Assembly: GCA_003104935.1 (NCBI GenBank)
Contig: PQAE01000007.1
Location: 47,221-111,220, forward strand
DNA: 64,000 bases
Source of the DNA: Parcubacteria group bacterium
Lineage (GTDB): Bacteria > Patescibacteriota > Patescibacteriia > UBA1558 > GWA2-36-10
Reading direction: 5' to 3'
This document shows, in pieces, positions 3,158-47,503 of the stretch; within the stretch, counting starts at the first letter, position 1, and the number at the start of each line of letters is the position of its first letter. The notes under the pieces are model-generated. The model did no database searches. It saw nothing but the letters and a program-made list of their open reading frames with translations, and had not been told where the DNA came from. The translations under genes and the position numbers were made by a program.

Positions 3158-3183
3158 CCCGCTAATCCAGCGGGCTTTTTATA
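3158..3183. terminator. bidirectional rho-independent terminator between the M23 peptidase gene and the recombinase gene
   Basis: GCCCGCTAATCCAGCGGGC hairpin followed by TTTTTA; the A-run on the other side serves the convergent minus-strand gene. Confidence 0.5.
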
Positions 3184-4073
3184 TTACGCAAATACGAATG
3201 CGCTACACTAGTATAGCCCTGGGTGGTGCGAATACTGCCGTGACCTAATAATTTCTGGATGTAGCGAATATCCAAGCCACTTTCCAATAAATGCGTGGCA
3301 AAGCTGTGCCGCAAACTGTGGCAAGTGGCCGCTGCGTTAATACCCGCTTTGGTCATGGCAGTAGTAAAAATTTTTTGGGCGGTGCGCTGACTGATGTGCG
3401 AACGATTGCCGGCACCCGGAAAAATATATTCCGAATAATCCGCTCTTTGTTTACTATACGCTTCCCACAGATCAAGACTCTGTAGGCTTAATAAAGTATA
3501 GCGATCCTTGTGTCCTTTGGCGTCCTTAACCAGTAATAATTTTTCGGCGGGTCGCAAATGATCCGGCTTTAATTTTACTACCTCGGAGACCCGCAAGCCC
3601 GATCCGTAAAGCAAGGACAAAAGCAGACGATGTTTAATATTGATCGGAACATTTATAATTCTTATAATCTGCTCGCGCGCTAAAATTGTCGGCAAAAATT
3701 TTTCCCGCCGCGGCCGGCGGACATGAGTGAAGAGACGGCGATGCAAAAAATCATCGTAGTAAAAACGCAAGGCAGAAATAACCAAATTTAAAGAAGTGTT
3801 GGAATACCCACGAGACTTGAGATATAAAAGATAATTTTTTATATCTTGAGCGTTCACTTCTTTGGCCGATTTAGAGACAAAATCCAAAAACCTCTGATTA
3901 TGCCCCAAATAAGCCTTGACAGTCCGATGTGAAAAACCTCTAATAATGAGCTCCTGAACTAAAAAAGCCAAGGGATGAGCCCGAGGCACTAACTCAACTG
4001 TCTTTTTAGCTAAATCTGGACTATTGGTTAAGTCCGACTGACCATTATAGTCAGCAAAAAAATCGCTTTTCAT
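3162..4073 (-). CDS. tyrosine site-specific recombinase, XerC/XerD-like, encoded divergently from the cassette array (candidate array recombinase)
   Basis: Catalytic residues present: RVSEV (Arg), KDAKGHKDRYTLL (Lys hairpin), HSLRHSFATHLL (HxxR), LGHGSIRTTQGYTSV (Tyr). The Lys-to-HxxR spacing is ~55 aa, so the IntI-specific insertion appears absent. Confidence 0.8.
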   Translation of the reverse strand: MKSDFFADYNGQSDLTNSPDLAKKTVELVPRAHPLAFLVQELIIRGFSHRTVKAYLGHNQRFLDFVSKSAKEVNAQDIKNYLLYLKSRGYSNTSLNLVISALRFYYDDFLHRRLFTHVRRPRREKFLPTILAREQIIRIINVPINIKHRLLLSLLYGSGLRVSEVVKLKPDHLRPAEKLLLVKDAKGHKDRYTLLSLQSLDLWEAYSKQRADYSEYIFPGAGNRSHISQRTAQKIFTTAMTKAGINAAATCHSLRHSFATHLLESGLDIRYIQKLLGHGSIRTTQGYTSVAHSYLRNIKSPLD

Positions 4074-4098
4074 ACTTTCTTCCGATTAATAATTATTG

Positions 4099-4127
4099 TT
4101 TACATTTTGGCTAATTAGAGCTATTAT
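4099..4127 (+). promoter_or_regulatory. sigma70-like promoter TTTACA-17-TATTAT facing the cassette array (Pc-like)
   Basis: TTTACA at 4099-4104, a 17-nt spacer, then TATTAT at 4122-4127, located between the recombinase start and the first cassette. Confidence 0.35.
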
Positions 4128-4187
4128 GTCAATAGGTTCGCAAAGCAACTGTTGTACGCCATAATAAAAAGCCCTAAATAAAATACT

Positions 4188-4871
4188 ATGGAAAACCCCG
4201 AAATAATGCCCGCTAATCAATTGACAAAGGCCGAAAGAGAGCGTCAAAATATCGAACAACAATCACGTTCAAGAATTTATGAAATTTTTGATAAATTTAA
4301 TACTGCAAATGAAAGAGTGGATGATATATTTAATAACTTAAAAAATATATTGACAAAAATGCCAAACTCTGAAGAAATAAAAAGTGAATTAGAGGCTCTA
4401 AGACAAATAGAAGAAAAAGGACATTTTTGTGAAAAAGCTTTCACTATTCTTGAACAAATAATTGAATGGCGGGAAAATAATTTACAAGAATTTGAGGAAA
4501 TTAGACGAAACGATTTTAATGAGCAGGGTGATTTTATTGAATTAAATAAAATGCTTTCTTACAATATTGACGGAGATTCTATTCATATTCATGTTCCGCC
4601 CAACGTATCAACATCAAACTCCGAAAAAATAAACTTAGTATATGATGGCCTAAAAAAACTGGCTCAAATAGTAGATCAAAATCCTGCTATAAAAACAATC
4701 GTTGGCACATCGTGGATAGTAGCTGAACATCCAGCATTAATGACTAAACTACATTTTACCTTGGAAGGTAAAATAGACGAGACAAGTAGAGCGGAACATT
4801 TTCCTGCTGAAAATAGAGAAATTGCTGTAGCTACGATGTCTAGAGATGAATTAATTAAACACTATTTATAA
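4188..4871 (+). CDS. hypothetical protein (cassette 1)
   Basis: 227-aa ORF flanked by a 23-bp inverted repeat GTTGTACGCCATAATAAAAAGCC (4151-4173) / GGCTTTTTATTACGGCGCACAAC (4884-4906). Confidence 0.55.
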   Translation: MENPEIMPANQLTKAERERQNIEQQSRSRIYEIFDKFNTANERVDDIFNNLKNILTKMPNSEEIKSELEALRQIEEKGHFCEKAFTILEQIIEWRENNLQEFEEIRRNDFNEQGDFIELNKMLSYNIDGDSIHIHVPPNVSTSNSEKINLVYDGLKKLAQIVDQNPAIKTIVGTSWIVAEHPALMTKLHFTLEGKIDETSRAEHFPAENREIAVATMSRDELIKHYL

Positions 4872-4970
4872 ATACTACAGTTTGGCTTTTTATTACGGCG
4901 CACAACACCGCGTATCTGGTTCGCGGACTAAATTATATTTTTATCTTAATAATAATTAAACATAAATTAT

Positions 4971-5231
4971 ATGAAACACAACATTTATTCTAGTGGCGGA
5001 GTTCAAAACATTGAATTTACTGATAATCAATCCGACAAATCCGTAGGCGTTGTTGATCCTGGCAGTTATACATTTACTACTGAACGTGAAGAAACTGTGC
5101 AATGTCTGACTGGATCATTAGAAATAAACAACAATCAGTGTTTACCTGGTCAAAAAGTTGTAATTCCAAAAGGAGAATCTTTTACTATTTCAGCAAAAGA
5201 AGCTTCAAGTTATTTGTGTTTATATAAATAA
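4971..5231 (+). CDS. ppnP: pyrimidine/purine nucleoside phosphorylase PpnP (DUF1255 cupin)
   Basis: 86 aa; ...GVVDPGSYTFTTEREETVQCLTGSLEI...SYLCLYK matches the PpnP/YaiE pattern (GEYTF...E.M.V..G.L...SYLCRY). Confidence 0.7.
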   Translation: MKHNIYSSGGVQNIEFTDNQSDKSVGVVDPGSYTFTTEREETVQCLTGSLEINNNQCLPGQKVVIPKGESFTISAKEASSYLCLYK

Positions 5232-5376
5232 AAATATAATTTAGTCCGCTCACTGAAATTCCTCGCCCATTAATAATTAATGGCCGCTCGGAACTTCAGA
5301 TACGCTGGCCTGTTATGTGAAATAAATAAATTCTTTTCTGCTATCGCAGAAAAATTATCCGTTCAATTTTTAATTT

Positions 5377-6519
5377 ATGTATCCAGAAAAATACAATCCG
5401 ACGCAAGAAGAAATTAACAAGGCTGAAAGCATAATGACAGACGAACAACGTCAAGCTTCTGAAATTCGGGCTGAAAATTACGAACAGGTGCAACCCCCGT
5501 GGAAAGATTTTACGGAAAAGATTGATGAAAATTTTGTCCGCAAAAGACCATCCCCTGAAGTTGTTAAAGCAATGAATCAGAGCCTAGAGGAATTGGGCCA
5601 GACATTTGAGGGGTCTGGTTTGAATTGGCACCTTGATGGAGCTTTAAATATATCCTTAATGAATGGCGCCGGCGAAAACCCTGAAAAATACATCGGCGAA
5701 CACAAGGATGTTGATATCTCCGTAGAGAAAGACGAACTTGAGGCATTAGAGGCGCAATTGCTTAAAAACGGTTATGGCTTATTTTTATCTCGCACAGGAG
5801 ATAAAATAAAAAATAAAATAATGAGGCGAGTTGGACATGGGGATTTCGCCGAATCAGATACAGAACATATGCTAATTGCCGCTATAGATGAAAACGGTAA
5901 AATCCGCCAAGATAAAGCCTTAAATTTTGTAGATATCCATATTATCCAAAGAGATGAGGCTGGGAAACCCTTGGGCGTATCAGGTACGCCCATCCCTGAA
6001 AAATGGGTTCAACCGCAGCCAATGGAATTTCATAGCAAACAAATAAATGTTTCACATCCTGGAAAAGTGCTTTATTTCAAGCTCCACCAAGATAGAAATT
6101 ATGATGTTACCGACGCGGAAAAATTAATTGAAACAGGTAAAATCATTGAAGAAGATATTGATGATATAGAAAAAGTATATAGGGATGAATTTAAAGCAAA
6201 TGTTGAGCGCGGTCGAAAAATTTTTGAGGGTTATACCAATCAACTCAAACCAGAAATGAGTGCGGACGAAATTTTTAATCTTATGCAAAGCCAGCCCGAA
6301 TTTCAAAAACGAGGAGATATGGCAGTGGGGTTAAAGAAATTAGCAGAAAAAATTGCAGAATCTGAAAATAAATCAGTTGATAATATATTATCTATTGCTA
6401 TCACCTTTTTTGGAATTGAAGAAAAGTATAATCAAAAGCGTCAAATATTAAACAGGATGAAACAAAGGGTAAAGGATATTAAAGAAATGGAACGAATTTG
6501 CGGAGAATTACAAAAATAA
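5377..6519 (+). CDS. hypothetical protein (cassette), possibly a nucleotidyltransferase fold
   Basis: 380-aa ORF; GSGLNWHLDGALNISLMNG...HKDVDISV resembles a GS-x(n)-D-x-D nucleotidyltransferase motif. This is a weak call. Confidence 0.45.
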   Translation: MYPEKYNPTQEEINKAESIMTDEQRQASEIRAENYEQVQPPWKDFTEKIDENFVRKRPSPEVVKAMNQSLEELGQTFEGSGLNWHLDGALNISLMNGAGENPEKYIGEHKDVDISVEKDELEALEAQLLKNGYGLFLSRTGDKIKNKIMRRVGHGDFAESDTEHMLIAAIDENGKIRQDKALNFVDIHIIQRDEAGKPLGVSGTPIPEKWVQPQPMEFHSKQINVSHPGKVLYFKLHQDRNYDVTDAEKLIETGKIIEEDIDDIEKVYRDEFKANVERGRKIFEGYTNQLKPEMSADEIFNLMQSQPEFQKRGDMAVGLKKLAEKIAESENKSVDNILSIAITFFGIEEKYNQKRQILNRMKQRVKDIKEMERICGELQK

Positions 6520-6622
6520 AATTTGCCTGAATAATGCCTGCTATCGCTCGCGAATTTATTTACATCAGCTAACACTGCGTATCTGGTTAATAGAATAAAT
6601 GATTTATTATTAATTTAAAAAT

Positions 6623-6979
6623 ATGGAAAAACTAATAGAATTAGCGCAGTCTCCATCAAGTCCTGGGATAGAGACCGTTGATAAAATGGTTATGAAATTA
6701 CATGTACCCTGTTCTGAAAAAAGTGTAACTGTGCAAATAAATCCATTTTTACAAGATTATGAAGAAAATGCAGACCAGCCAAATGTTCAAATAAGACAAA
6801 TGCAAATAACGAGTACTACATCAGATACAAAAACTCTTACTTTTGATTTTGAAAATAACTCTACTCATAACATAGATATAGATGGAGAAAATTATCAAAT
6901 AACCCTAATGAATATTGGAAAAGAAAAAACTCAAGATGGTGAATTTCCCGCTTTTGAATTTCTAGTCAAAAAAGATTAA
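6623..6979 (+). CDS. hypothetical protein (cassette; inside palindrome 6567-7106)
   Basis: 118-aa ORF between arm AGCTAACACTGCGTATCTGGTTAATAGAATAAATGAT and its complement, which is split at 6980-6999 / 7081-7106. Confidence 0.5.
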   Translation: MEKLIELAQSPSSPGIETVDKMVMKLHVPCSEKSVTVQINPFLQDYEENADQPNVQIRQMQITSTTSDTKTLTFDFENNSTHNIDIDGENYQITLMNIGKEKTQDGEFPAFEFLVKKD

Positions 6980-7125
6980 ATCATTTATTCTATTAACCCA
7001 AATCCCTCATTCCCCTTCGACTCGTTCCGGTGGTCACTTCGTGAAAGTTTACCACTTCCACTTGCTCAGGGTCATTCGGGACTTCAGATACGCTGACCTG
7101 TTAGGAGAAATTAAGTTTCAAAAAT

Positions 7126-7491
7126 ATGAATAAAAAATTTAAAAAAATGTTATTCCAAATGTATCGAAGCTTTCCTAATTCTTTTTGGTCAGACTCTGAA
7201 TTAAAAAAAATTGCTACCAAGGAAGCTATAGATGCTCTGGTCGAGGCTCATTATCTTTTTAAGATAAAAGTAGAATTTATTGAAAAAGGAAAGATCAAGG
7301 TGGACGGAGGCACATATATGAATACTGAAAACAAGGCTCTTCATAATCCCGGTTTTAAAGATTGTTACGGACTTGGACCAAACTCAATAAACATAATATA
7401 CGCTCATAGACTACAAATTCTTACTTATTGGATTATTGCACTGACAGTATTTACAACGGTTTTAACAATTTTCACAATTTTTGAAACTTAA
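7126..7491 (+). CDS. hypothetical protein (cassette), C-terminal transmembrane segment
   Basis: 121-aa ORF; hydrophobic C-terminus ILTYWIIALTVFTTVLTIFTIF; flanked by GTTAGGAGA / TCGCCCAAC. Confidence 0.5.
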   Translation: MNKKFKKMLFQMYRSFPNSFWSDSELKKIATKEAIDALVEAHYLFKIKVEFIEKGKIKVDGGTYMNTENKALHNPGFKDCYGLGPNSINIIYAHRLQILTYWIIALTVFTTVLTIFTIFET

Positions 7492-7547
7492 CATCGCCCA
7501 ACACCGGATATCCGAGGATCGAGCTAGAATAAAATTATTAAAAAAAT

Positions 7548-8090
7548 ATGAAAAAGATAATAAAATTTTTTAAAAAGCCATCCACTTTAGTAATAATCGT
7601 ACTTCTAGTTACTATATTCGTTTTATCTTTAAAAAACTCCGATTTAAAATATTCACGTCTTTACGAAGTGGAGACTATTCCTGATATAAATCTTACAAAT
7701 TCGTTATATAATTATTCTAATGATAATTATAGTGCGGGCTCTATTAGCGGATTTGTTGCATTTTATGATAAAGACAGCCAGCCAAAGGGATTAAAACAAT
7801 ATTATATTATTGGGCCATTAAATAAATTAGATGAAAATTTAAATCGAATATTTTCTCTTGAAGAAATAGTTAAAATGGATTATTTACCTCCAACAAGTAT
7901 CAATAAGTACGAGCTCAGAGAAACCAGCGAATCATATCAAATGTTGACACTAGAAGATGAAACTGGAAATATGTTTTTTATAAACAAAAATTCAGATGAA
8001 GTTACTATGAGGGATGTAGGTGGTGATAATACTAGATTAATTACCAACCAATCAGATTATAAAAATTTTATAATTAACCTTTTAAAATAA
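7548..8090 (+). CDS. hypothetical membrane-anchored protein (cassette; inside palindrome 7496-8212)
   Basis: 180-aa ORF with an N-terminal transmembrane helix LVIIVLLVTIFVLSL. Confidence 0.5.
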   Translation: MKKIIKFFKKPSTLVIIVLLVTIFVLSLKNSDLKYSRLYEVETIPDINLTNSLYNYSNDNYSAGSISGFVAFYDKDSQPKGLKQYYIIGPLNKLDENLNRIFSLEEIVKMDYLPPTSINKYELRETSESYQMLTLEDETGNMFFINKNSDEVTMRDVGGDNTRLITNQSDYKNFIINLLK

Positions 8091-8239
8091 TTTTATTCTT
8101 TACGCTCGCTCCTCTACATCCCTTCGCCTCCTAATATGATGTTGGCTTTTAAAAGCCAAATATTATATCATATTAGTAGGCTCGGGACGTCGGATATCCT
8201 GGCCTGTTAGGCGAAATTTACTCATCTTTTTATTAAAAT

Positions 8240-8752
8240 ATGCCAATTTACTTTTCAGTTGATCGTAATAAAACCTTACAAAAAGGAACAGAGATTGCTT
8301 TAATTCAGCACAATGATATTAGTCCAGTAGAGCTACAAAATTATATAAATACGCTGTTTCCAGATGGAGTAACGAATCACGGTGAAAGATATATGTTGCA
8401 ACCATGTCCGGCAAATCAAGTTAATTCCGTAATTGAACTGATTTTTGAATATGAAAGACGGAATAATTTCATAAGCTGCCCTTCTAGAATGCAATCTGTA
8501 TTTGCCTTTGATAATCTTGAATCAGCAAAAAAATTTCGCGAAATATACGGGAACAATCAAGGCGCTATAGTAAAAATTGACGCAATCTCTGCTTTCAAAG
8601 CTGATATGAATTTATTAACTTTAAAAGATTCATTATTACAACTGTCTTATAATGCTCATAAATATTGGAAAGGTGAAGCCTCTGATAGTCCATTTTGGGA
8701 ACATCTATTGATTCCGCCAGTTAAAGTAATTGATATAATAAAAGATGAGTAA
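8240..8752 (+). CDS. hypothetical protein (cassette)
   Basis: 170-aa ORF in the array, bounded by GTTAGGCGA (8206) and CTCGCCCAAC (8755-8764). Confidence 0.5.
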   Translation: MPIYFSVDRNKTLQKGTEIALIQHNDISPVELQNYINTLFPDGVTNHGERYMLQPCPANQVNSVIELIFEYERRNNFISCPSRMQSVFAFDNLESAKKFREIYGNNQGAIVKIDAISAFKADMNLLTLKDSLLQLSYNAHKYWKGEASDSPFWEHLLIPPVKVIDIIKDE

Positions 8753-8841
8753 ACCTCGCCCAACACCGGATATCCGAGGAGCGAGCTAGAATAAAATTAT
8801 TAAATAAAAGTAATATGCTTCATAAATAATAAATACAAAAT

Positions 8842-9066
8842 ATGGATATCAAAACAACACTTTACATTATAGAAAAAAGACGTGGTAATAATTACGCAAA
8901 AATGATTGATATGGTTGCGTTCGGACTAACGAATGGTGGTACAAAAACCGCTTTAATATTGGAAGAAACAGCTCAAGCCCTAGAAAAAGCCCAAACCAAC
9001 CCAACTAAAGAAAATTGGGAAAATTTAAAAAAATCACTTATTAATAATCCGCCAAGAGATATTTAA
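8842..9066 (+). CDS. hypothetical small protein (cassette; inside palindrome 8758-9192)
   Basis: 74-aa ORF; the flanking arms are near-identical to those around 7548-8090. Confidence 0.45.
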   Translation: MDIKTTLYIIEKRRGNNYAKMIDMVAFGLTNGGTKTALILEETAQALEKAQTNPTKENWENLKKSLINNPPRDI

Positions 9067-9209
9067 TACTTTTATTCCTTGACGCTCACTCCTCTACATC
9101 CCTTCGCCTCCTAATATGATGTTGGCTTTAAAAAGCCAAATATTATATCATATTAGTAGGCTCGGGACGTCGGATATCCTGAACCGTTAGCTGAAATATT
9201 TTAAATTTA

Positions 9210-9470
9210 GTGCCACAGATCATGTTTAATTATAAAGAAAAAATTGGAGAAGATTTAAAGAAAGAGGCGCGAGCCCTCGGCCTTAGTGAAGAAGGTTGGT
9301 ACGAACATAAAGGAACAGTTCGTGAAGTATTCAGAGAAGCCGCCGTTCAGACGCGAGTAAGAGAAGCAAAAAGAGCGCGTCGAGAAAATAGATTGTGGAT
9401 CTTCGCTGTAATCTCCGCTTTAAATGCTCTTTTTAGTGCTGCGGCCGCATGGCTCGCTGTGCTAAAATAA
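9210..9470 (+). CDS. hypothetical small protein (cassette)
   Basis: 86-aa ORF flanked by a 22-bp inverted repeat GTTAGCTGAAATATTTTAAATT / AATTTAAAATACATCGCCCAAC. Confidence 0.45.
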   Translation: MPQIMFNYKEKIGEDLKKEARALGLSEEGWYEHKGTVREVFREAAVQTRVREAKRARRENRLWIFAVISALNALFSAAAAWLAVLK

Positions 9471-9588
9471 AATTTAAAATACATCGCCCAACACCGCGTA
9501 TGCGCTTAGAGAAATACCCCTATTTGACAAGGTTTTTAATCTATGATAATGTGTGTAATACAAAGTATTACAATTAATATATAAATAT

Positions 9589-9804
9589 ATGCGACAAGTA
9601 ATAAATATCTCCCTGCCTGATACTATGGCTAAAACAGTTAAAAAAGCTGTTAAAACTGGTGACTATTCCTCTACCAGCGAATTTTTTCGTCATTTAATAA
9701 GAGACTGGCAAGAAAATAAGCTAATGACTGAATTAAGTGAGAGTAGATTAGAACTAGCTAGTGGAAAAGGAATGGTTTTAAAATCCTTAAAAGATTTGCG
9801 ATAA
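9589..9804 (+). CDS. ribbon-helix-helix antitoxin (ParD/CopG-like)
   Basis: 71 aa; 10 bp upstream of a RelE/ParE toxin gene; N-terminal RHH-like segment ISLPDTMAKTVKKAV. Confidence 0.6.
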   Translation: MRQVINISLPDTMAKTVKKAVKTGDYSSTSEFFRHLIRDWQENKLMTELSESRLELASGKGMVLKSLKDLR

Positions 9805-9814
9805 TCCATTTTCT

Positions 9815-10075
9815 ATGGAAATTATTTATAGCTCAAAATTCGCTAGAGAGTATAGAAGGCTGCCAAAGGATGTGAAAGCTCTAGCTGAAACACAAGAAGC
9901 TATTTTTCGTAAAGATCCTTATGATCCGAGGCTAAAAACCCACAAGCTAAAAGGAAAGTTTGATGGGTTTTTATCTTTTTCTATTGGCTATAAATATAGG
10001 ATAATATTTGAATTCGCCAAAGGTAGAAAAACGGTATATTTTCACATAGTAGGAGATCATGATATTTATCAATAG
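9815..10075 (+). CDS. type II toxin-antitoxin system RelE/ParE family toxin
   Basis: 86 aa; YKYRIIFEF...VYFHIVGDHDIY is a typical RelE/ParE C-terminus. Confidence 0.7.
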   Translation: MEIIYSSKFAREYRRLPKDVKALAETQEAIFRKDPYDPRLKTHKLKGKFDGFLSFSIGYKYRIIFEFAKGRKTVYFHIVGDHDIYQ

Positions 10076-10205
10076 ACCGGGTATTTCTCTAAAGCAAATT
10101 ATCTTTTCGCTACGGTGGTTTGTCCCGCAAAATTATACCACCTACGCTCAAAGATAACTTCGCATACGCACATCTGTTAGCTGGAAATATTCCTTTTCAA
10201 AAATC

Positions 10206-10580
10206 ATGAAAAATAAAAGAGCTGTTATAATAATTACAATGCTGATTATTGCCGGAATCTTTGTAATCGGCGCTGATTGGGCGAATGAGACAATTCATCG
10301 TTTCTTTCACAGCTATTTTGCTGATATTATTATTCCATTTGGATTTTACTTGCTCTTAATTTTAAATGAAGAAAATTTTGTTTTTCTTAAAAAATGGCAG
10401 GTAAAAGCCGGGACAGTATTTGCTTTATGTGCCCTATCTGAAACACTGCAATACTTTGATATTTATGCATTAGCAAGGGTTTTTGATCCTATAGACTATG
10501 TAATGTATGGTCTGGGAGTAATTTTTGCTGTTTTCGTTGATAGAGTTATTTTAAAAAAAATGTTCAGTTTCTGGCATTAA
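10206..10580 (+). CDS. hypothetical membrane protein (last cassette; no closing site identified)
   Basis: 124-aa ORF with multiple hydrophobic helices; preceded by the GTTAGCTGGAAAT core at 10176. Confidence 0.5.
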   Translation: MKNKRAVIIITMLIIAGIFVIGADWANETIHRFFHSYFADIIIPFGFYLLLILNEENFVFLKKWQVKAGTVFALCALSETLQYFDIYALARVFDPIDYVMYGLGVIFAVFVDRVILKKMFSFWH

Positions 10581-10665
10581 AAAGTTGTAATACAAAAAAT
10601 TGCCAAATAATATTAAAGATATTGCATCAATTCTTTAGCCCTAAAATTTAAGAAAAAATAATTCA

Positions 10666-30836: not shown

Positions 30837-31523
30837 TTAGGAAACTACTGCGCGACCCCGCAAGCCGTCGTCGGCGCTATCCGGATGGCACCAGTCGACG
30901 CACAGCTTGCCGAGGCCGCTGCTCCAGTACACGCACGGCACGCTACCATTGCGGTGACGCGAACCGGCGCAGAGCGTGGTGTTCTGGATGTCCAGATGCT
31001 TGTTGGTCTCCGAGTAGTATTTCAACTCGTAGACCAGTCTTTCCAGCAAAGTGATGCTGGAGATTTTTCGCTTCTGGAGATCATTGGCCGAGAGATTCTT
31101 CAGCTCTTCGTCTGCTTCCACGCGGTCGCGGACACGGATGGCGTAGGACGCCTCGGTGTTGCGATCGTTGTTAGGCACATCTTTGTCCAGATCATTTGTG
31201 TATGACCAAGACTTGAAGGCCTTGGAGCAGGCTTGGAAAGCCTGATTGATGGTCAGACCCTGGGGGATGAAGAGGACTCTGGTGAAGTCTTCTTGCTCTT
31301 CGGGAATGGAGACATCCGAGAAGTCCACGGACAGACGGAAGTACTTGCGGTAGAACTCCTGCCATTCCTCTTGGATGGAGTTGATGGCGAAGGGGTTTTG
31401 GCGCTGAGCAAAGAGATCCAGCTCCCGCGGCGTGATGACTCCGCTCTTGATCTTGAGCAAAATATCGCTCATGGTACCAAGCACAGTGCCCGGCACCATA
31501 CCGACCGTCGCCTGCTTAGGCAT
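30837..31523 (-). CDS. DGR-1 target (variable) protein with a C-terminal C-type-lectin/FGE-like variable region
   Basis: C-terminus ...CAGSRHRNGSVPCVYWSSGLGKLCVDWCHPDSADDGLRGRAVVS is encoded by VR1 at 30840-30965, up to the stop at 30837. Confidence 0.8.
   Translation of the reverse strand: MPKQATVGMVPGTVLGTMSDILLKIKSGVITPRELDLFAQRQNPFAINSIQEEWQEFYRKYFRLSVDFSDVSIPEEQEDFTRVLFIPQGLTINQAFQACSKAFKSWSYTNDLDKDVPNNDRNTEASYAIRVRDRVEADEELKNLSANDLQKRKISSITLLERLVYELKYYSETNKHLDIQNTTLCAGSRHRNGSVPCVYWSSGLGKLCVDWCHPDSADDGLRGRAVVS
30840..30965 (-). repeat. DGR-1 variable repeat (VR1)
   Basis: Covers the 3' end of the target ORF; differs from TR1 only at TR adenine positions; GC-rich IMH-like 3' end CTTGCGGGGTCGCGCAG. 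Confidence 0.85.
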
Positions 31524-31627
31524 GATCAGTTTCCTTTATTTTGAGGTACAATTCTAGGTATTTCCTAGAACATATAATAATATCATATATTCACGATTTT
31601 GTCAATAGTTGCTAGTCCCCTATTATT

Positions 31628-46924: not shown

Positions 46925-47503
46925 TTACTTGCAGACCGCCGCGGGGTTGCCGTCGTTGAAGTAGCTGCCCAGGTAGTAGTAGTTCCAGTTCCACTGCTGG
47001 CCATCCCAGTAGAGATAGCGGACGCACAAGTCGCCGTAGGAGCTGCGGTAGATGGTACCCCAGAAGTAGGTGTACTTTCCTTTCCACTCCTCGGGAATGA
47101 ACTGGGGATTTTTCAGATACCAATCCAAGAGATTGGCATTGAAGACCGGCTGGCCCTGGAGCTCCTTACGGAGATCGTGGCCTATGATCCAGCGACCGTC
47201 CTTCTTCCTCTCGGAGAGGTAGAGGCTGATCTTGGTGGGATCAAACTCCAACTTCCCACCACGGATGTGCTCCTCGACCTTCCAGCCGTCAGGCACGAAG
47301 GGGTTGGCGTCGAGGTCGACGATGTGTTTGGTGACGACGATCTGGGCCAGGCCGTGAAGCAGGGCTTTGATGTCGATGAGTTGAGGGTACTGACCCAGCA
47401 AAGTGATTTCTGCCGGAGTAAAATCCTTCGCCTCCAGAGCGTTCATCAGCTGATGAGTCTGACCCTCAGAATAAGAAGACATGTCTTCTCTCCTTTTTGG
47501 CAC
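46925..47503 (-). CDS. DGR-2 target (variable) protein with a Tyr/Trp-rich C-terminus
   Basis: C-terminus ...CVRYLYWDGQQWNWNYYYLGSYFNDGNPAAVCK is encoded by VR2. Confidence 0.75.
   Translation of the reverse strand: MPKRREDMSSYSEGQTHQLMNALEAKDFTPAEITLLGQYPQLIDIKALLHGLAQIVVTKHIVDLDANPFVPDGWKVEEHIRGGKLEFDPTKISLYLSERKKDGRWIIGHDLRKELQGQPVFNANLLDWYLKNPQFIPEEWKGKYTYFWGTIYRSSYGDLCVRYLYWDGQQWNWNYYYLGSYFNDGNPAAVCK
46929..47050 (-). repeat. DGR-2 variable repeat (VR2)
   Basis: Covers the 3' end of the target ORF and differs from TR2 only at TR adenine positions. Confidence 0.85.

Follow-up and report, generated by a model that had tools for sequence, protein, structure and literature searches.

A fixed 75-nt hairpin forms the third arm of integron-like sites in a Patescibacteria cassette array and carries a −10-like element

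Integron attC sites are imperfect palindromes with the order R''/L''...L'/R', boxes of the form RYYYAAC / G|TTRRRY, an unpaired spacer and a boundary at G|TT, and the array lies beside a divergent tyrosine recombinase gene and an attI-like site; all of this recurs at the locus described here. Classical attC sites are about 60-140 nt long, which is far shorter than many of the sites considered here. A branched terminal structure of 65 nt has been described for VCR 2/1 (Vibrio cholerae repeat), and classical attC sites have extrahelical bases on the R''-L'' arm (PMC2727003), opposite to the arm that bears the extra hairpin in our sites. In the pdif modules of Acinetobacter plasmids, which involve a Xer-family recombinase, genes lie between alternating half-structures (PMC7399989), as they do here. 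Hairpins are also known as promoters or priming signals in single-stranded DNA, in particular the F plasmid Frpo, the ColIb-P9 ssi, the filamentous-phage minus-strand origin and the rolling-circle ssoA, where the hairpin displays promoter elements to the RNA polymerase of the host, with proposed roles in early transcription and primer synthesis (PMC12672017).

We analyzed a 64-kb stretch of Patescibacteria DNA (64,000 nt; the window), in which an array of five cassettes adjoins the gene of a tyrosine recombinase of the Xer / 'Cand' type (3162-4073, minus strand, 303 aa) that is divergent from the array. The protein contains the Pfam Phage_integrase and SAM-like domains, aligns end to end with the P. 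abyssi XerA (4a8e), and has XerA types as its best NCBIfam matches, with XerA_Arch at the top (217 bits). The integron integrase model TIGR02249 reaches 179 bits against a cut-off of 265, with the match split into two stretches, and the insertion of the integron integrases is absent, as residues 197-222 (26 aa) face residues 171-237 (67 aa) of VchIntIA. The window holds no second gene of this kind, and a search of the genome collection with the recombinase protein returned only two distant loci of no relevance (L006 and L007).

The attI-like region (4099-4152, plus strand) contains a promoter-like TTTACA-17-TATTAT at 4099-4127, found by promoter scan and reading into the array, together with a divergent promoter-like site for the recombinase at 4132-4104. 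The first cassette junction, CTG|TTGTACGCC, is located at about 4152, and 4150-4173 pairs with 4884-4907 on the R'' side of site 1. The motif ATGTCAAYAGGTKC is kept at the equivalent place in L002, L004, L014, L024, and L027. A divergent recombinase, an attI and a co-oriented array with a predicted promoter are present in the window and in relatives (L002, L004, L009, L010, L011, L013, L014, L024, L026, and L027). In one lineage, P0076, most contigs break at the array. A likeness of the attI region to repeats at 31569 and 47695 ('TGTCAATAG') was discarded, as it comes down to normal TTGACA −35 boxes of the opposite strand.

Minimum free energy folds gave a three-way junction of the helices P1, P2, and P3 in 16 of the 17 sites folded (five genomes), in agreement with the three-way asymmetry that a previous sequence-only reading had proposed, and more sites of this form were found in L014, L024, L026, L027, and L010. 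In a single-stranded site, the left arm R''-L'' would pair with the right arm L'-R' to make P1, which on the left strand would run straight into P2 with no unpaired bases; the ORF-proximal sequences would pair as P2, with the inner ORF in its loop; and the 75-nt unit would fold on itself between P2 and L' as P3. This model assumes pairing across loops of 0.3-2.7 kb. Such attC-like sites would punctuate an integron-like array, with boundaries at the G|TT of R' and the recombinase and the attI-like site at one end.

The comparison with attC made in the sequence-only reading holds for the surrounding sites in their R boxes, covarying L boxes, and asymmetric unpaired spacer. The R boxes fit RYYYAAC / G|TTRRRY, where R'' is GCCCAAC, GCACAAC, or AGCTAAC and R' is GTTAGGC, GTTATGT, or GTTAGCT, with TATC/GATA variants in relatives. 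Across 12 site types the L boxes are paired in 100% of cells, with double changes at 7 of 9 pairs, figures that come from sites whose finding partly required complementarity. More generally, the relatives' sites were found with patterns derived from the window, some of which required L''/L' complementarity, so they are not an unbiased sample. The central spacer is unpaired and asymmetric at all sites, with 3 nt from R to L on the left vs 5-7 nt on the right. The L stems are perfectly paired, no extrahelical bases occur on the R''-L'' arm of the examined sites, and all extra nucleotides as well as the side arm are on the L'-R' arm. In each cassette, the private sequence starts directly behind the G of R', and its pairing partner is the R'' flank of the next site.

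Two sites of one type ('type E') in the window, sites 3 and 4, contain the 75-nt unit. The left arm of site 3 (7496-7545, plus strand) consists of R'' GCCCAAC (7496-7502), the spacer ACC, L'' GGATATCCGA (7506-7515), and the 5' strand of P2 (7516-7545), and it pairs with 8080-8112 and 8191-8212. The P2 loop holds an inner ORF of 180 aa (7548-8090, plus strand) that has no family match. The 3' strand of this ORF-proximal stem (8080-8112, plus strand), which pairs with 7516-7545, is followed by copy 1 of the unit (8113-8187, plus strand), comprising the junction J2/3 (TCTACAT, 8113-8119), the side hairpin P3 (8120-8186), and the first base of J3/1 (ACGT, 8187-8190). Next on the plus strand are L' CGGATATCC (8191-8199), the unpaired spacer TGGCCT (8200-8205), and R' G|TTAGGC (8206-8212), which we infer to be the cassette boundary; 8205-8230 pairs with 8740-8765 of the next site. 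Site 4 repeats this order, with its left arm at 8758-8806 on the plus strand (R'' 8758-8764, L'' 8768-8777, P2 5' strand 8778-8806), an inner ORF of 74 aa in the P2 loop (8842-9066, plus strand), the P2 3' strand at 9060-9092 pairing with 8778-8806, copy 2 of the unit at 9093-9167 on the plus strand (J2/3 9093-9099, P3 9100-9166), and then L' (9171-9179), the spacer TGAACC, and R' GTTAGCT (9186-9192).

The 75-mer occurs exactly twice in the 64-kb window (chance expectation 0), and the only mismatch between the copies is located in the apical loop. The repeat itself is longer than 75 nt, since 8091-8217 and 9071-9197 match over 127 nt at 91%, and the left arms (7490-7546 and 8752-8808) are also 95% identical. 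In DNA folding, both copies give the same bulged hairpin on either strand (ΔG of −16.8 kcal/mol for the top and −17.7 kcal/mol for the bottom strand; z of −6.3 to −6.9), and none of 200 shuffled sequences folds equally well. Thus the copies are near-identical, each forms its own bulged hairpin, the unit is placed between the ORF-proximal stem and the L'/R' boxes, and the left arms in this window carry no insertion, all as had been read from the sequence. In Rfam, the unit matched no family, whether at the gathering threshold or with E ≤ 1.

The other three sites of the array have inserts of their own at this position. In site 1, a short hairpin (5260-5292, plus strand) comes after TCACTGAAAT and precedes ACTT and L' at 5297; its z is −1.5 for the top and −3.6 for the bottom strand, it has no −10 motif, and an ortholog occurs in L011. 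In site 2, the insert (7004-7080, plus strand) has a core GGTGGT...ACCAC, comes after CCCAAAT, and is followed by ACTT and L' at 7085; it shows no significant fold (z about 0) and a weak motif TGGTAAACT on the bottom strand (7054-7046). In site 5, whose P2 loop houses a ParD/RelE-like pair (9589-10075), the insert (10100-10156, plus strand) comes after GCAAAT and is followed by ACTT and L' at 10161, with z of −2.9 and −3.7 and a bottom-strand motif TGGTATAAT at 10140-10132. This fifth insert had been overlooked. The inserts that the sequence-only reading placed at 5251-5296 and 7000-7080 do exist, but its description of them as unrelated is too simple, because the inserts lie between common junctions (CAAAT before and ACTT after) and share a −10-like motif, specific to one strand, where the stem meets the loop.

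The same holds beyond the window, in that most other sites have a P3 of unrelated sequence between the conserved junctions CAAAT ... ACTT, for which type E has the variants ACAT and ACGT, respectively. Every lineage examined keeps these junctions, including those whose recombinase is as little as 52% identical. P3 is absent from some sites, namely the 'c' sites of L004, which lie within a P3-bearing array, and the L002 array, which is built of simple hairpins; a site can therefore exist without P3.

We found the 75-nt unit in five distinct copies, two in the window and one each in L004, L011, and L013, always in this site type and at one and the same place within it. Identity among the copies is 97-100% (alignment columns 12-110) vs 62-63% for the recombinase genes, and each copy goes with a different enclosed ORF (180 aa, 74 aa, GrpB, a UbiE-type methyltransferase, and a 224-aa protein). 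The apical stem is preserved by a compensatory change from GGCTT..AAGCC to GGCC..GGCC, the single such pair, which the MAFFT alignment of the five copies misplaced. With this one pair and two uncompensated changes, covariation within the unit is thin because the unit is near-invariant. From these results, we conclude that the 75-nt unit is the fixed third arm, P3, of an integron-like site and neither an insertion nor a MITE.

We also found that the conserved bulge of the unit has the sequence of a bacterial −10 promoter element on the opposite strand. The extended −10 motif TGATATAAT lies on the minus strand at 8162-8170 in copy 1, with TGAT paired in the stem and ATAAT forming the unpaired bulge, and at 9142-9150 in copy 2. 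On the top strand, the bulge of copy 1 reads ATATTA. Among 24 sequence-distinct P3 types from 10 genomes, 19 have [T/G]GNTAWAAT on the bottom strand; the full breakdown for this strand is TGNTAWAAT in 15, GGNTAWAAT in 4, TATAAT alone in 1, TGGTAAACT in 1, and no motif in three, and in 1 case the motif is on the top strand only. The background is 1.7e-4 per position, and the binomial P for 10 of 13 is about 4e-18. In every fold TGNT is paired and AWAAT is unpaired, so that the extended −10 element straddles the stem/loop junction with −15 to −12 base-paired and −11 to −7 unpaired. In fork-junction DNA bound by the holoenzyme, pairing likewise stops at −12 and the single strand starts from −11. 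The motif TGNTAWAAT resembles the sigma-70 extended −10 (TGnTATAAT) also in that hexamer positions 1, 2, and 6 are the most conserved and position 3 the least. It came from reading the aligned P3 sequences and was missed by a sigma-70 two-hexamer scan, in which the array showed no enrichment of promoter-like sites (33 found vs 29 expected); P3 has no −35 box. Elsewhere in this genome the motif is enriched ahead of gene starts, as outside the array, 5 of 20 motif matches sit 10-150 nt upstream of a gene on the same strand vs 1.3 expected (P = 0.008). In L004, the P3 motif at 4609 is upstream of the bottom-strand target gene (4852-5535) of a diversity-generating retroelement (DGR).

From sequence and predicted folds, P3 is probably an accessory module, a −10-bearing third helix of an attC-like site that acts as an entry hairpin for RNA polymerase. 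It would be an accessory rather than a core recognition element, as most sites have one and its sequence varies, and it may dock a sigma-70-type RNA polymerase. In duplex DNA, a P3 promoter would drive transcription to the left, in the direction of the P2 cargo and the recombinase; bottom-strand cargo such as the L004 DGR would be read in sense, and the top-strand ORFs, which are the rule, in antisense. When the bottom strand is folded, P3 would offer a ready-melted 'fork-junction' promoter. GC skew suggests that the bottom strand of this array is on the lagging-strand template. Against this reading, transcription to the left would at most sites run antisense to the inner ORF, for no obvious use, GG replaces TG in four of the motifs and three P3 types have no motif on the bottom strand, and the A/T block after a small G+C hairpin resembles an intrinsic terminator of the top strand. 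A wider proposal, which we put forward tentatively and which is rather doubtful as a whole, is that the locus represents an undescribed integron relative of Patescibacteria with a plain Xer-type recombinase and three-way-junction sites, in which the loop of one arm carries cargo genes and the other arm, i.e., the 75-nt unit and its analogs, is a pre-melted docking site for RNA polymerase on the recombinogenic bottom strand. If this is true, polymerase binding or primer synthesis would be coupled to single-strand recombination or to the conversion of an excised single-stranded cassette into duplex.

The side arm might instead be purely structural, as the sequence-only reading suggested, distinguishing the strands or the arms so that the recombinase picks the correct strand and orientation, a part played in attC by the extrahelical bases and the unpaired spacer. 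P3, where present, is always on the L'-R' arm beside the L box, its junction nucleotides are conserved, and the L stems have no extrahelical bases. The recombinase lacks the IntI domain that reads such bases and could therefore need another asymmetry. However, P3-less sites share the L004 array with P3 sites and compose the L002 array, and a role in strand choice is therefore not required. The spacer of 3 nt vs 5-7 nt already makes every site asymmetric, and a structural role leaves unexplained why the TAWAAT hexamer is exact and strand-biased and has T/G-G two bases upstream. We thus consider a solely structural role possible but rather unlikely.

It is improbable that P3 is an intrinsic terminator in which the apical G+C mini-hairpin of the top strand and a T-rich run end transcription of the inner ORF before L'/R' and the next cassette. 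A consensus scan does mark 8142-8159 and 9122-9139 on the plus strand as terminator-like, and several other P3s have GCGC-N3-GCGC followed by TATTTTA. The A/T block is nevertheless not a variable T run but a fixed ATTWTA with N-C-[A/C] after it, which is [T/G]GNTAWAAT in reverse complement. Furthermore, the apical mini-hairpin is missing from the P3s at L004 4587, L004 3930, and L011 5468, the apical stems are just 4-7 bp, and the region is not clearly enriched in terminator-like sites (8 vs 4.2 ± 2.0 expected).

The arms alternate strictly, the 'inner' and 'outer' ORFs are both bounded by private inverted repeats, the recombinase is Xer-like, and closing loops of up to 2.7 kb is difficult, all of which would suit palindromes that never fold. 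The arms would then be separate duplex recombinase sites in alternating orientation, as in pdif, with each ORF a module of its own and the 75-nt unit regulatory DNA at a module end. As duplex sites, however, the arms are inequivalent everywhere (R-to-L spacing of 3 nt on the left vs 5-7 nt on the right), sites without an ORF have compact P2/P3 hairpins (L004 4041/3930, L011 5575/5468, and L014), and the private sequence begins precisely at the G|TT of R' in the manner of integron cassettes. Inverted duplex sites would also flip the inner ORFs, yet all 13 of the 13 non-DGR inner ORFs are co-oriented. This account is very improbable. The same co-orientation led us to reject an inversion switch in which the inner ORF is flipped between the P2 arms toward the P3 promoter. 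We also set aside a HUH/Rep nick site in the loop (TAATATTAC-like motif), since the genes called in the inspected arrays include none that is Rep-like.

An independent small mobile repeat (a MITE or palindromic element) inserted secondarily in two sites, which the sequence-only reading had allowed for, would suit the near-identity of the window copies and the self-complementarity of the unit but is extremely improbable, as no copy lies outside the array in the window and all five copies are bound to sites, at one nucleotide position of one site type with equally conserved flanking site sequence, without target duplications or terminal repeats apart from the hairpin itself, while other site types have P3s of different sequence at the equivalent position, BLAST with the whole right arm gave no match among phage or plasmid records, and the 25-nt apical-stem probe GTTGGCTTTNAAAAGCCAAATATTA, which missed the L011/L013 variant because it was taken from the window's own stem, hit no viral contig and a single JGI metagenome contig, from the L004 genome.

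If the reading of P3 as a −10-bearing third arm is true, the 75-nt unit is one visible part of an integron-like system that would probably escape the standard detectors. Integron detectors key on the IntI domain and on the usual attC length limit, whereas this recombinase lacks the domain and many of the sites are longer. Our literature searches turned up no earlier account of arrays like these from the candidate phyla radiation, which does not prove that there is none. The system raises the question of how a Xer-type enzyme without the IntI insertion reads folded sites, and how genes came to lie inside the loops of recombination hairpins bears on the unsolved origin of gene cassettes. In addition, the question of why most sites carry a strand-specific −10 element at a hairpin apex would tie RNA polymerase to the substrates of single-strand recombination in a concrete and testable way.

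Compared with integrons, the Patescibacteria system has a recombinase without the IntI-specific insertion and places the extra material on the L'-R' arm. Branching in the classical attC sites differs in that here the junctions are conserved, one branch carries a promoter-like motif, and the other branch has room for complete ORFs or for a retroelement (up to 2.7 kb). The pdif sites are 28-bp duplex sites with fixed spacing and no hairpin arms, whereas the arms here differ in both spacing and content. Extra DNA within attC, as with the 75-nt unit, is also known from IS1111-attC insertion sequences and group IIC-attC introns, but these attC-targeting elements encode a transposase or reverse transcriptase and have defined ends, while the unit is non-coding and co-conserved with its site. 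Frpo-type hairpins rebuild a duplex −35 and −10 and direct transcription out of the hairpin base into the flanking strand. In P3 there is no −35, and the −10 is unpaired and points into the loop, so that it could mimic only the fork junction; unlike the Frpo type, its motif also reads as a normal extended −10 promoter in duplex DNA. In contrast to an ordinary extended −10 promoter, the P3 element is located at the apex of a hairpin in a recombination site and is mostly antisense to the neighboring ORF.

The near-identical 75-nt pair at 8113-8187 and 9093-9167, flagged in the sequence-only reading, was confirmed: the copies differ by 1 mismatch, have no further occurrence in the window (0 expected by chance), and each copy alone forms its own bulged hairpin, with the same fold on either strand. 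Folded as DNA, they gave dG values of -16.8 and -17.7 kcal/mol with z-scores of -6.3 to -6.9, and no shuffle was as good. The repeat exceeds this unit, as 8091-8217 and 9071-9197 share 91% identity over 127 nt; the left arms that belong to them, 7490-7546 and 8752-8808, match at 95%.

Folding of 17 sites from five genomes, with long inner regions swapped for a tetraloop, yielded a three-way junction in 16. The R and L boxes form P1 and the ORF-proximal stem forms P2, and a hairpin branching off the right strand, between P2 and L', is P3, which recovers the hairpin at the position originally proposed. The 5' arm is free of insertion, as had also been stated, in that left-strand P1 runs straight into P2 without unpaired bases. 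In type E sites, which carry the unit, the right strand reads J2/3 TCTACAT, P3 and J3/1 ACGT, J2/3 and J3/1 being the junctions flanking P3; therefore, the 75-nt unit consists of J2/3 plus P3, and it constitutes the P3 arm in a three-way-junction site that is conserved. The segments at 5251-5296 and 7000-7080, previously described as analogous but unrelated insertions, do occupy the same position as P3 arms of other sites and are unrelated in sequence, but P3 arms have common flanks and, in most types, a common bottom-strand motif asymmetry. A fifth such arm lies at 10100-10156. Among the 17 P3 sequences tested, 13 reached z <= -2 on at least one strand, 7004-7080 not among them. Covariation of the L boxes is perfect over 12 site types, 7 of 9 pairs showing double changes, a result qualified by the complementarity demanded in part of the site finding.

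The bottom strand was predicted to be 0-8 kcal/mol more stable than the top in 16 of the 17 sites, to which composition effects of the DNA energy parameters may contribute. We also noticed that the type E P2 (7516-7539 with 8091-8112) repeats the P1 architecture, with a 9-bp box, an internal loop, a further A/T box and then private sequence; its internal loop is 3 nt (TAG) versus 6-7 nt (CTTTAC, CTTGAC or CTTAAC), and its left strand reads GCTAGAAT, with a -10-like hexamer that precedes the start of the inner ORF by 20 nt.

At the stem/loop junction of the unit's P3 lies a -10 element that is biased to one strand. P3 sequences from different site types are not related to one another, yet their flanks are common: (TC)ACCCAAAT, GCAAAT or, in type E, CTACAT on the 5' side, and ACTT or, in type E, ACGT on the 3' side. 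TGNT forms the end of the distal stem's 5' strand on the bottom strand, and unpaired AWAAT comes next. The motif is TGATATAAT in type E (8170-8162 and 9150-9142, bottom strand), where the ATATTA bulge is its complement, and TGGTATAAT in the 10100-10156 arm (10140-10132, bottom strand). Across 24 sequence-distinct P3 types from 10 genomes, the bottom strand contains strict TGNTAWAAT in 15, GGNTAWAAT in 4, only TATAAT in 1, TGGTAAACT in 1 and no motif in 3, while a top-strand -10 hexamer is also present in 5 types and is top-only in one. Occurrence in 10 of 13 corresponds to a binomial P of ~4e-18 (background 1.7e-4 per position). The hexamer is invariant at positions 1, 2 and 6 and varies freely at position 3, which is likewise the conservation profile of sigma-70 -10 elements. 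Outside the array, 5 of 20 matches lie 10-150 nt upstream of a same-strand gene versus 1.3 expected (P = 0.008), so this organism apparently uses the motif as a type of promoter.

From these sequence features, we infer that P3 may dock RNA polymerase. In duplex DNA, its -10 would fire leftward, sense for bottom-strand cargo such as the target gene of a diversity-generating retroelement (DGR) 240 nt downstream in the related locus L004, and antisense for inner ORFs, which usually lie on the top strand. When the bottom strand is folded, P3 would be duplex to -12 and single-stranded from -11, mimicking a fork junction.

Downstream of the -10 on the bottom strand, 8113-8135 (minus strand) contains AGGAGG-N7-ATG-TAG, as does the second copy; here a Shine-Dalgarno sequence precedes a start-stop pair spanning J2/3. 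Top-strand extended -10 motifs, TGATATAAT and TGCTAAAAT at 8731-8739 and 9460-9468 (+), closely precede the left arms of sites 4 and 5 and are candidate inner-ORF promoters.

P3 is not needed for a site. Sites that are simple hairpins, with neither P2 nor P3, make up the L002 array and also occur in the duplicated ORF-less cassettes of L004, and the L009 site 9187/8825 keeps a small P2 with an ORF in its P3 loop. Sites of L004 (2637-3103) and L011 (4368-4809) have the left arm in common, and their inner ORFs (109 aa) are 86% identical, but they differ in P3 arms and outer ORFs, indicating that sites are mosaics. Taken together, P3 is a modular accessory, which weakens the proposed analogy with the bulges that set strand choice in attC; those bulges lie on the opposite arm (PMC2727003). 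We regard it as unlikely that P3 serves purely as structural asymmetry. That the P3 hairpin is a top-strand terminator appears more doubtful again. The exchange point of the L004/L011 mosaic is near the conserved J2/3 sequence.

The array (4150-10190) alternates left arms, composed of R'' (e.g. GCCCAAC), a 3-nt spacer and a 9-10-nt L'' box, with right arms, composed of an L' box, a 5-6-nt spacer and R' G|TTRRRY, and every interval holds an ORF. A private palindrome extension brackets each inner ORF. Around each outer ORF, an R' flank pairs with the following site's R'' flank, as integron-like cutting of cassettes at G|TT would predict. Alternation might also suggest duplex sites of the pdif kind, which we consider improbable, slightly more so than a terminator. 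At the left end lies an attI-like region, in which promoter-like sites point in both directions. G+C is 33-35% in the array bins (4001-10600) and 44-45% elsewhere, and plus-strand GC skew is negative in every non-array bin, which suggests that the bottom strand of the array sites is on the lagging-strand template.

Whole ORFs lie within recombination-site hairpin loops (window 4971-5231, 6623-6979, 7548-8090, 8842-9066 and 9589-10075; L004 4570-7340; L009 8825-9187), giving each cassette an outer and an inner compartment. Loop cargo includes a Ppnp-like protein, a ParD/RelE pair and, in L004, an entire 2.7-kb DGR.

Recombinase homologues 52-77% identical were fetched with flanks, and their arrays are all on the same side of the recombinase. 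The unit recurs in L004, L011/L012 and L013, each time at an identical nucleotide position within a type E site; right-arm identity is 97-100% over alignment columns 12-110, while the recombinase genes are only 62-63% identical to that of the window and the enclosed ORFs all differ. In L011/L013, the apical stem changes from GGCTT..AAGCC to GGCC..GGCC, one compensatory change, with two further, uncompensated substitutions. A 25-nt probe for the window's apical stem found no match in viral contigs and, in JGI metagenomes, only the L004 genome, the pattern being too specific for the L011/L013 variant; the whole right arm had no BLAST match in phage or plasmid records, and the unit none in Rfam. 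The suggested solitary MITE, for which repetition of the unit would speak, is therefore very improbable, as the window has no unit elsewhere and the relatives' copies all sit at one type E position, the single metagenome scan being over-specific.

In L004 (4852-7300) and L010 (7346-9839), a DGR (reverse transcriptase, bAvd and target gene) directly adjoins the recombinase, that of L004 being inside the array's first site. One array of L004 also has two copies (2455-2640 and 3748-3933, 97% identical) of a 186-nt cassette that lacks an ORF and bears a simple hairpin site. The window has DGR template-repeat/variable-repeat pairs outside the array (30386-30511/30840-30965 and 46383-46507/46926-47050), both at 3' ends of minus-strand genes (30837-31523 and 46925-47503), with differences at plus-strand T, i.e. 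coding-strand A. L015-L023 and L025 share one same recombinase, and most of these metagenome contigs terminate at the attI-like region, 100-220 nt ahead of its start, as expected if a strain-variable array breaks assemblies.

The divergent tyrosine recombinase at the array's left end (3162-4073), from a Parcubacteria/Patescibacteria genome, is Xer-like as judged by alignment. Among NCBIfam models it matches archaeal XerA best (217 bits), and it aligns with Pyrococcus XerA end to end; the integron-integrase model scored 179 bits in two pieces against a cut-off of 265. It has 26 residues opposite 67 in VchIntIA, and hence no IntI-specific insertion. One survey placed these recombinases in a Xer-related 'Cand' subgroup and suggested that simple recombinases, including this subgroup, may stand in for Xer (PMC8138268).

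No account of such arrays in the candidate phyla radiation came up in full-text literature searches. The system appears to work like an integron. However, two features that define integrons are absent, as the recombinase lacks the IntI insertion and the R''-L'' arm has no extrahelical bases. It also differs from one in that ORFs are held inside site loops and an arm is putatively promoter-bearing. The branch as such is not new, since VCR sites have branched terminal structures (PMC2727003). Unlike in most large chromosomal integrons (PMC5371416), the bottom strand is suggested here to be on the lagging-strand template. As a putative fork-junction mimic, folded P3 is reminiscent of single-strand promoters and priming signals (PMC12672017), but it is built differently, having no -35 and being oriented into the loop.
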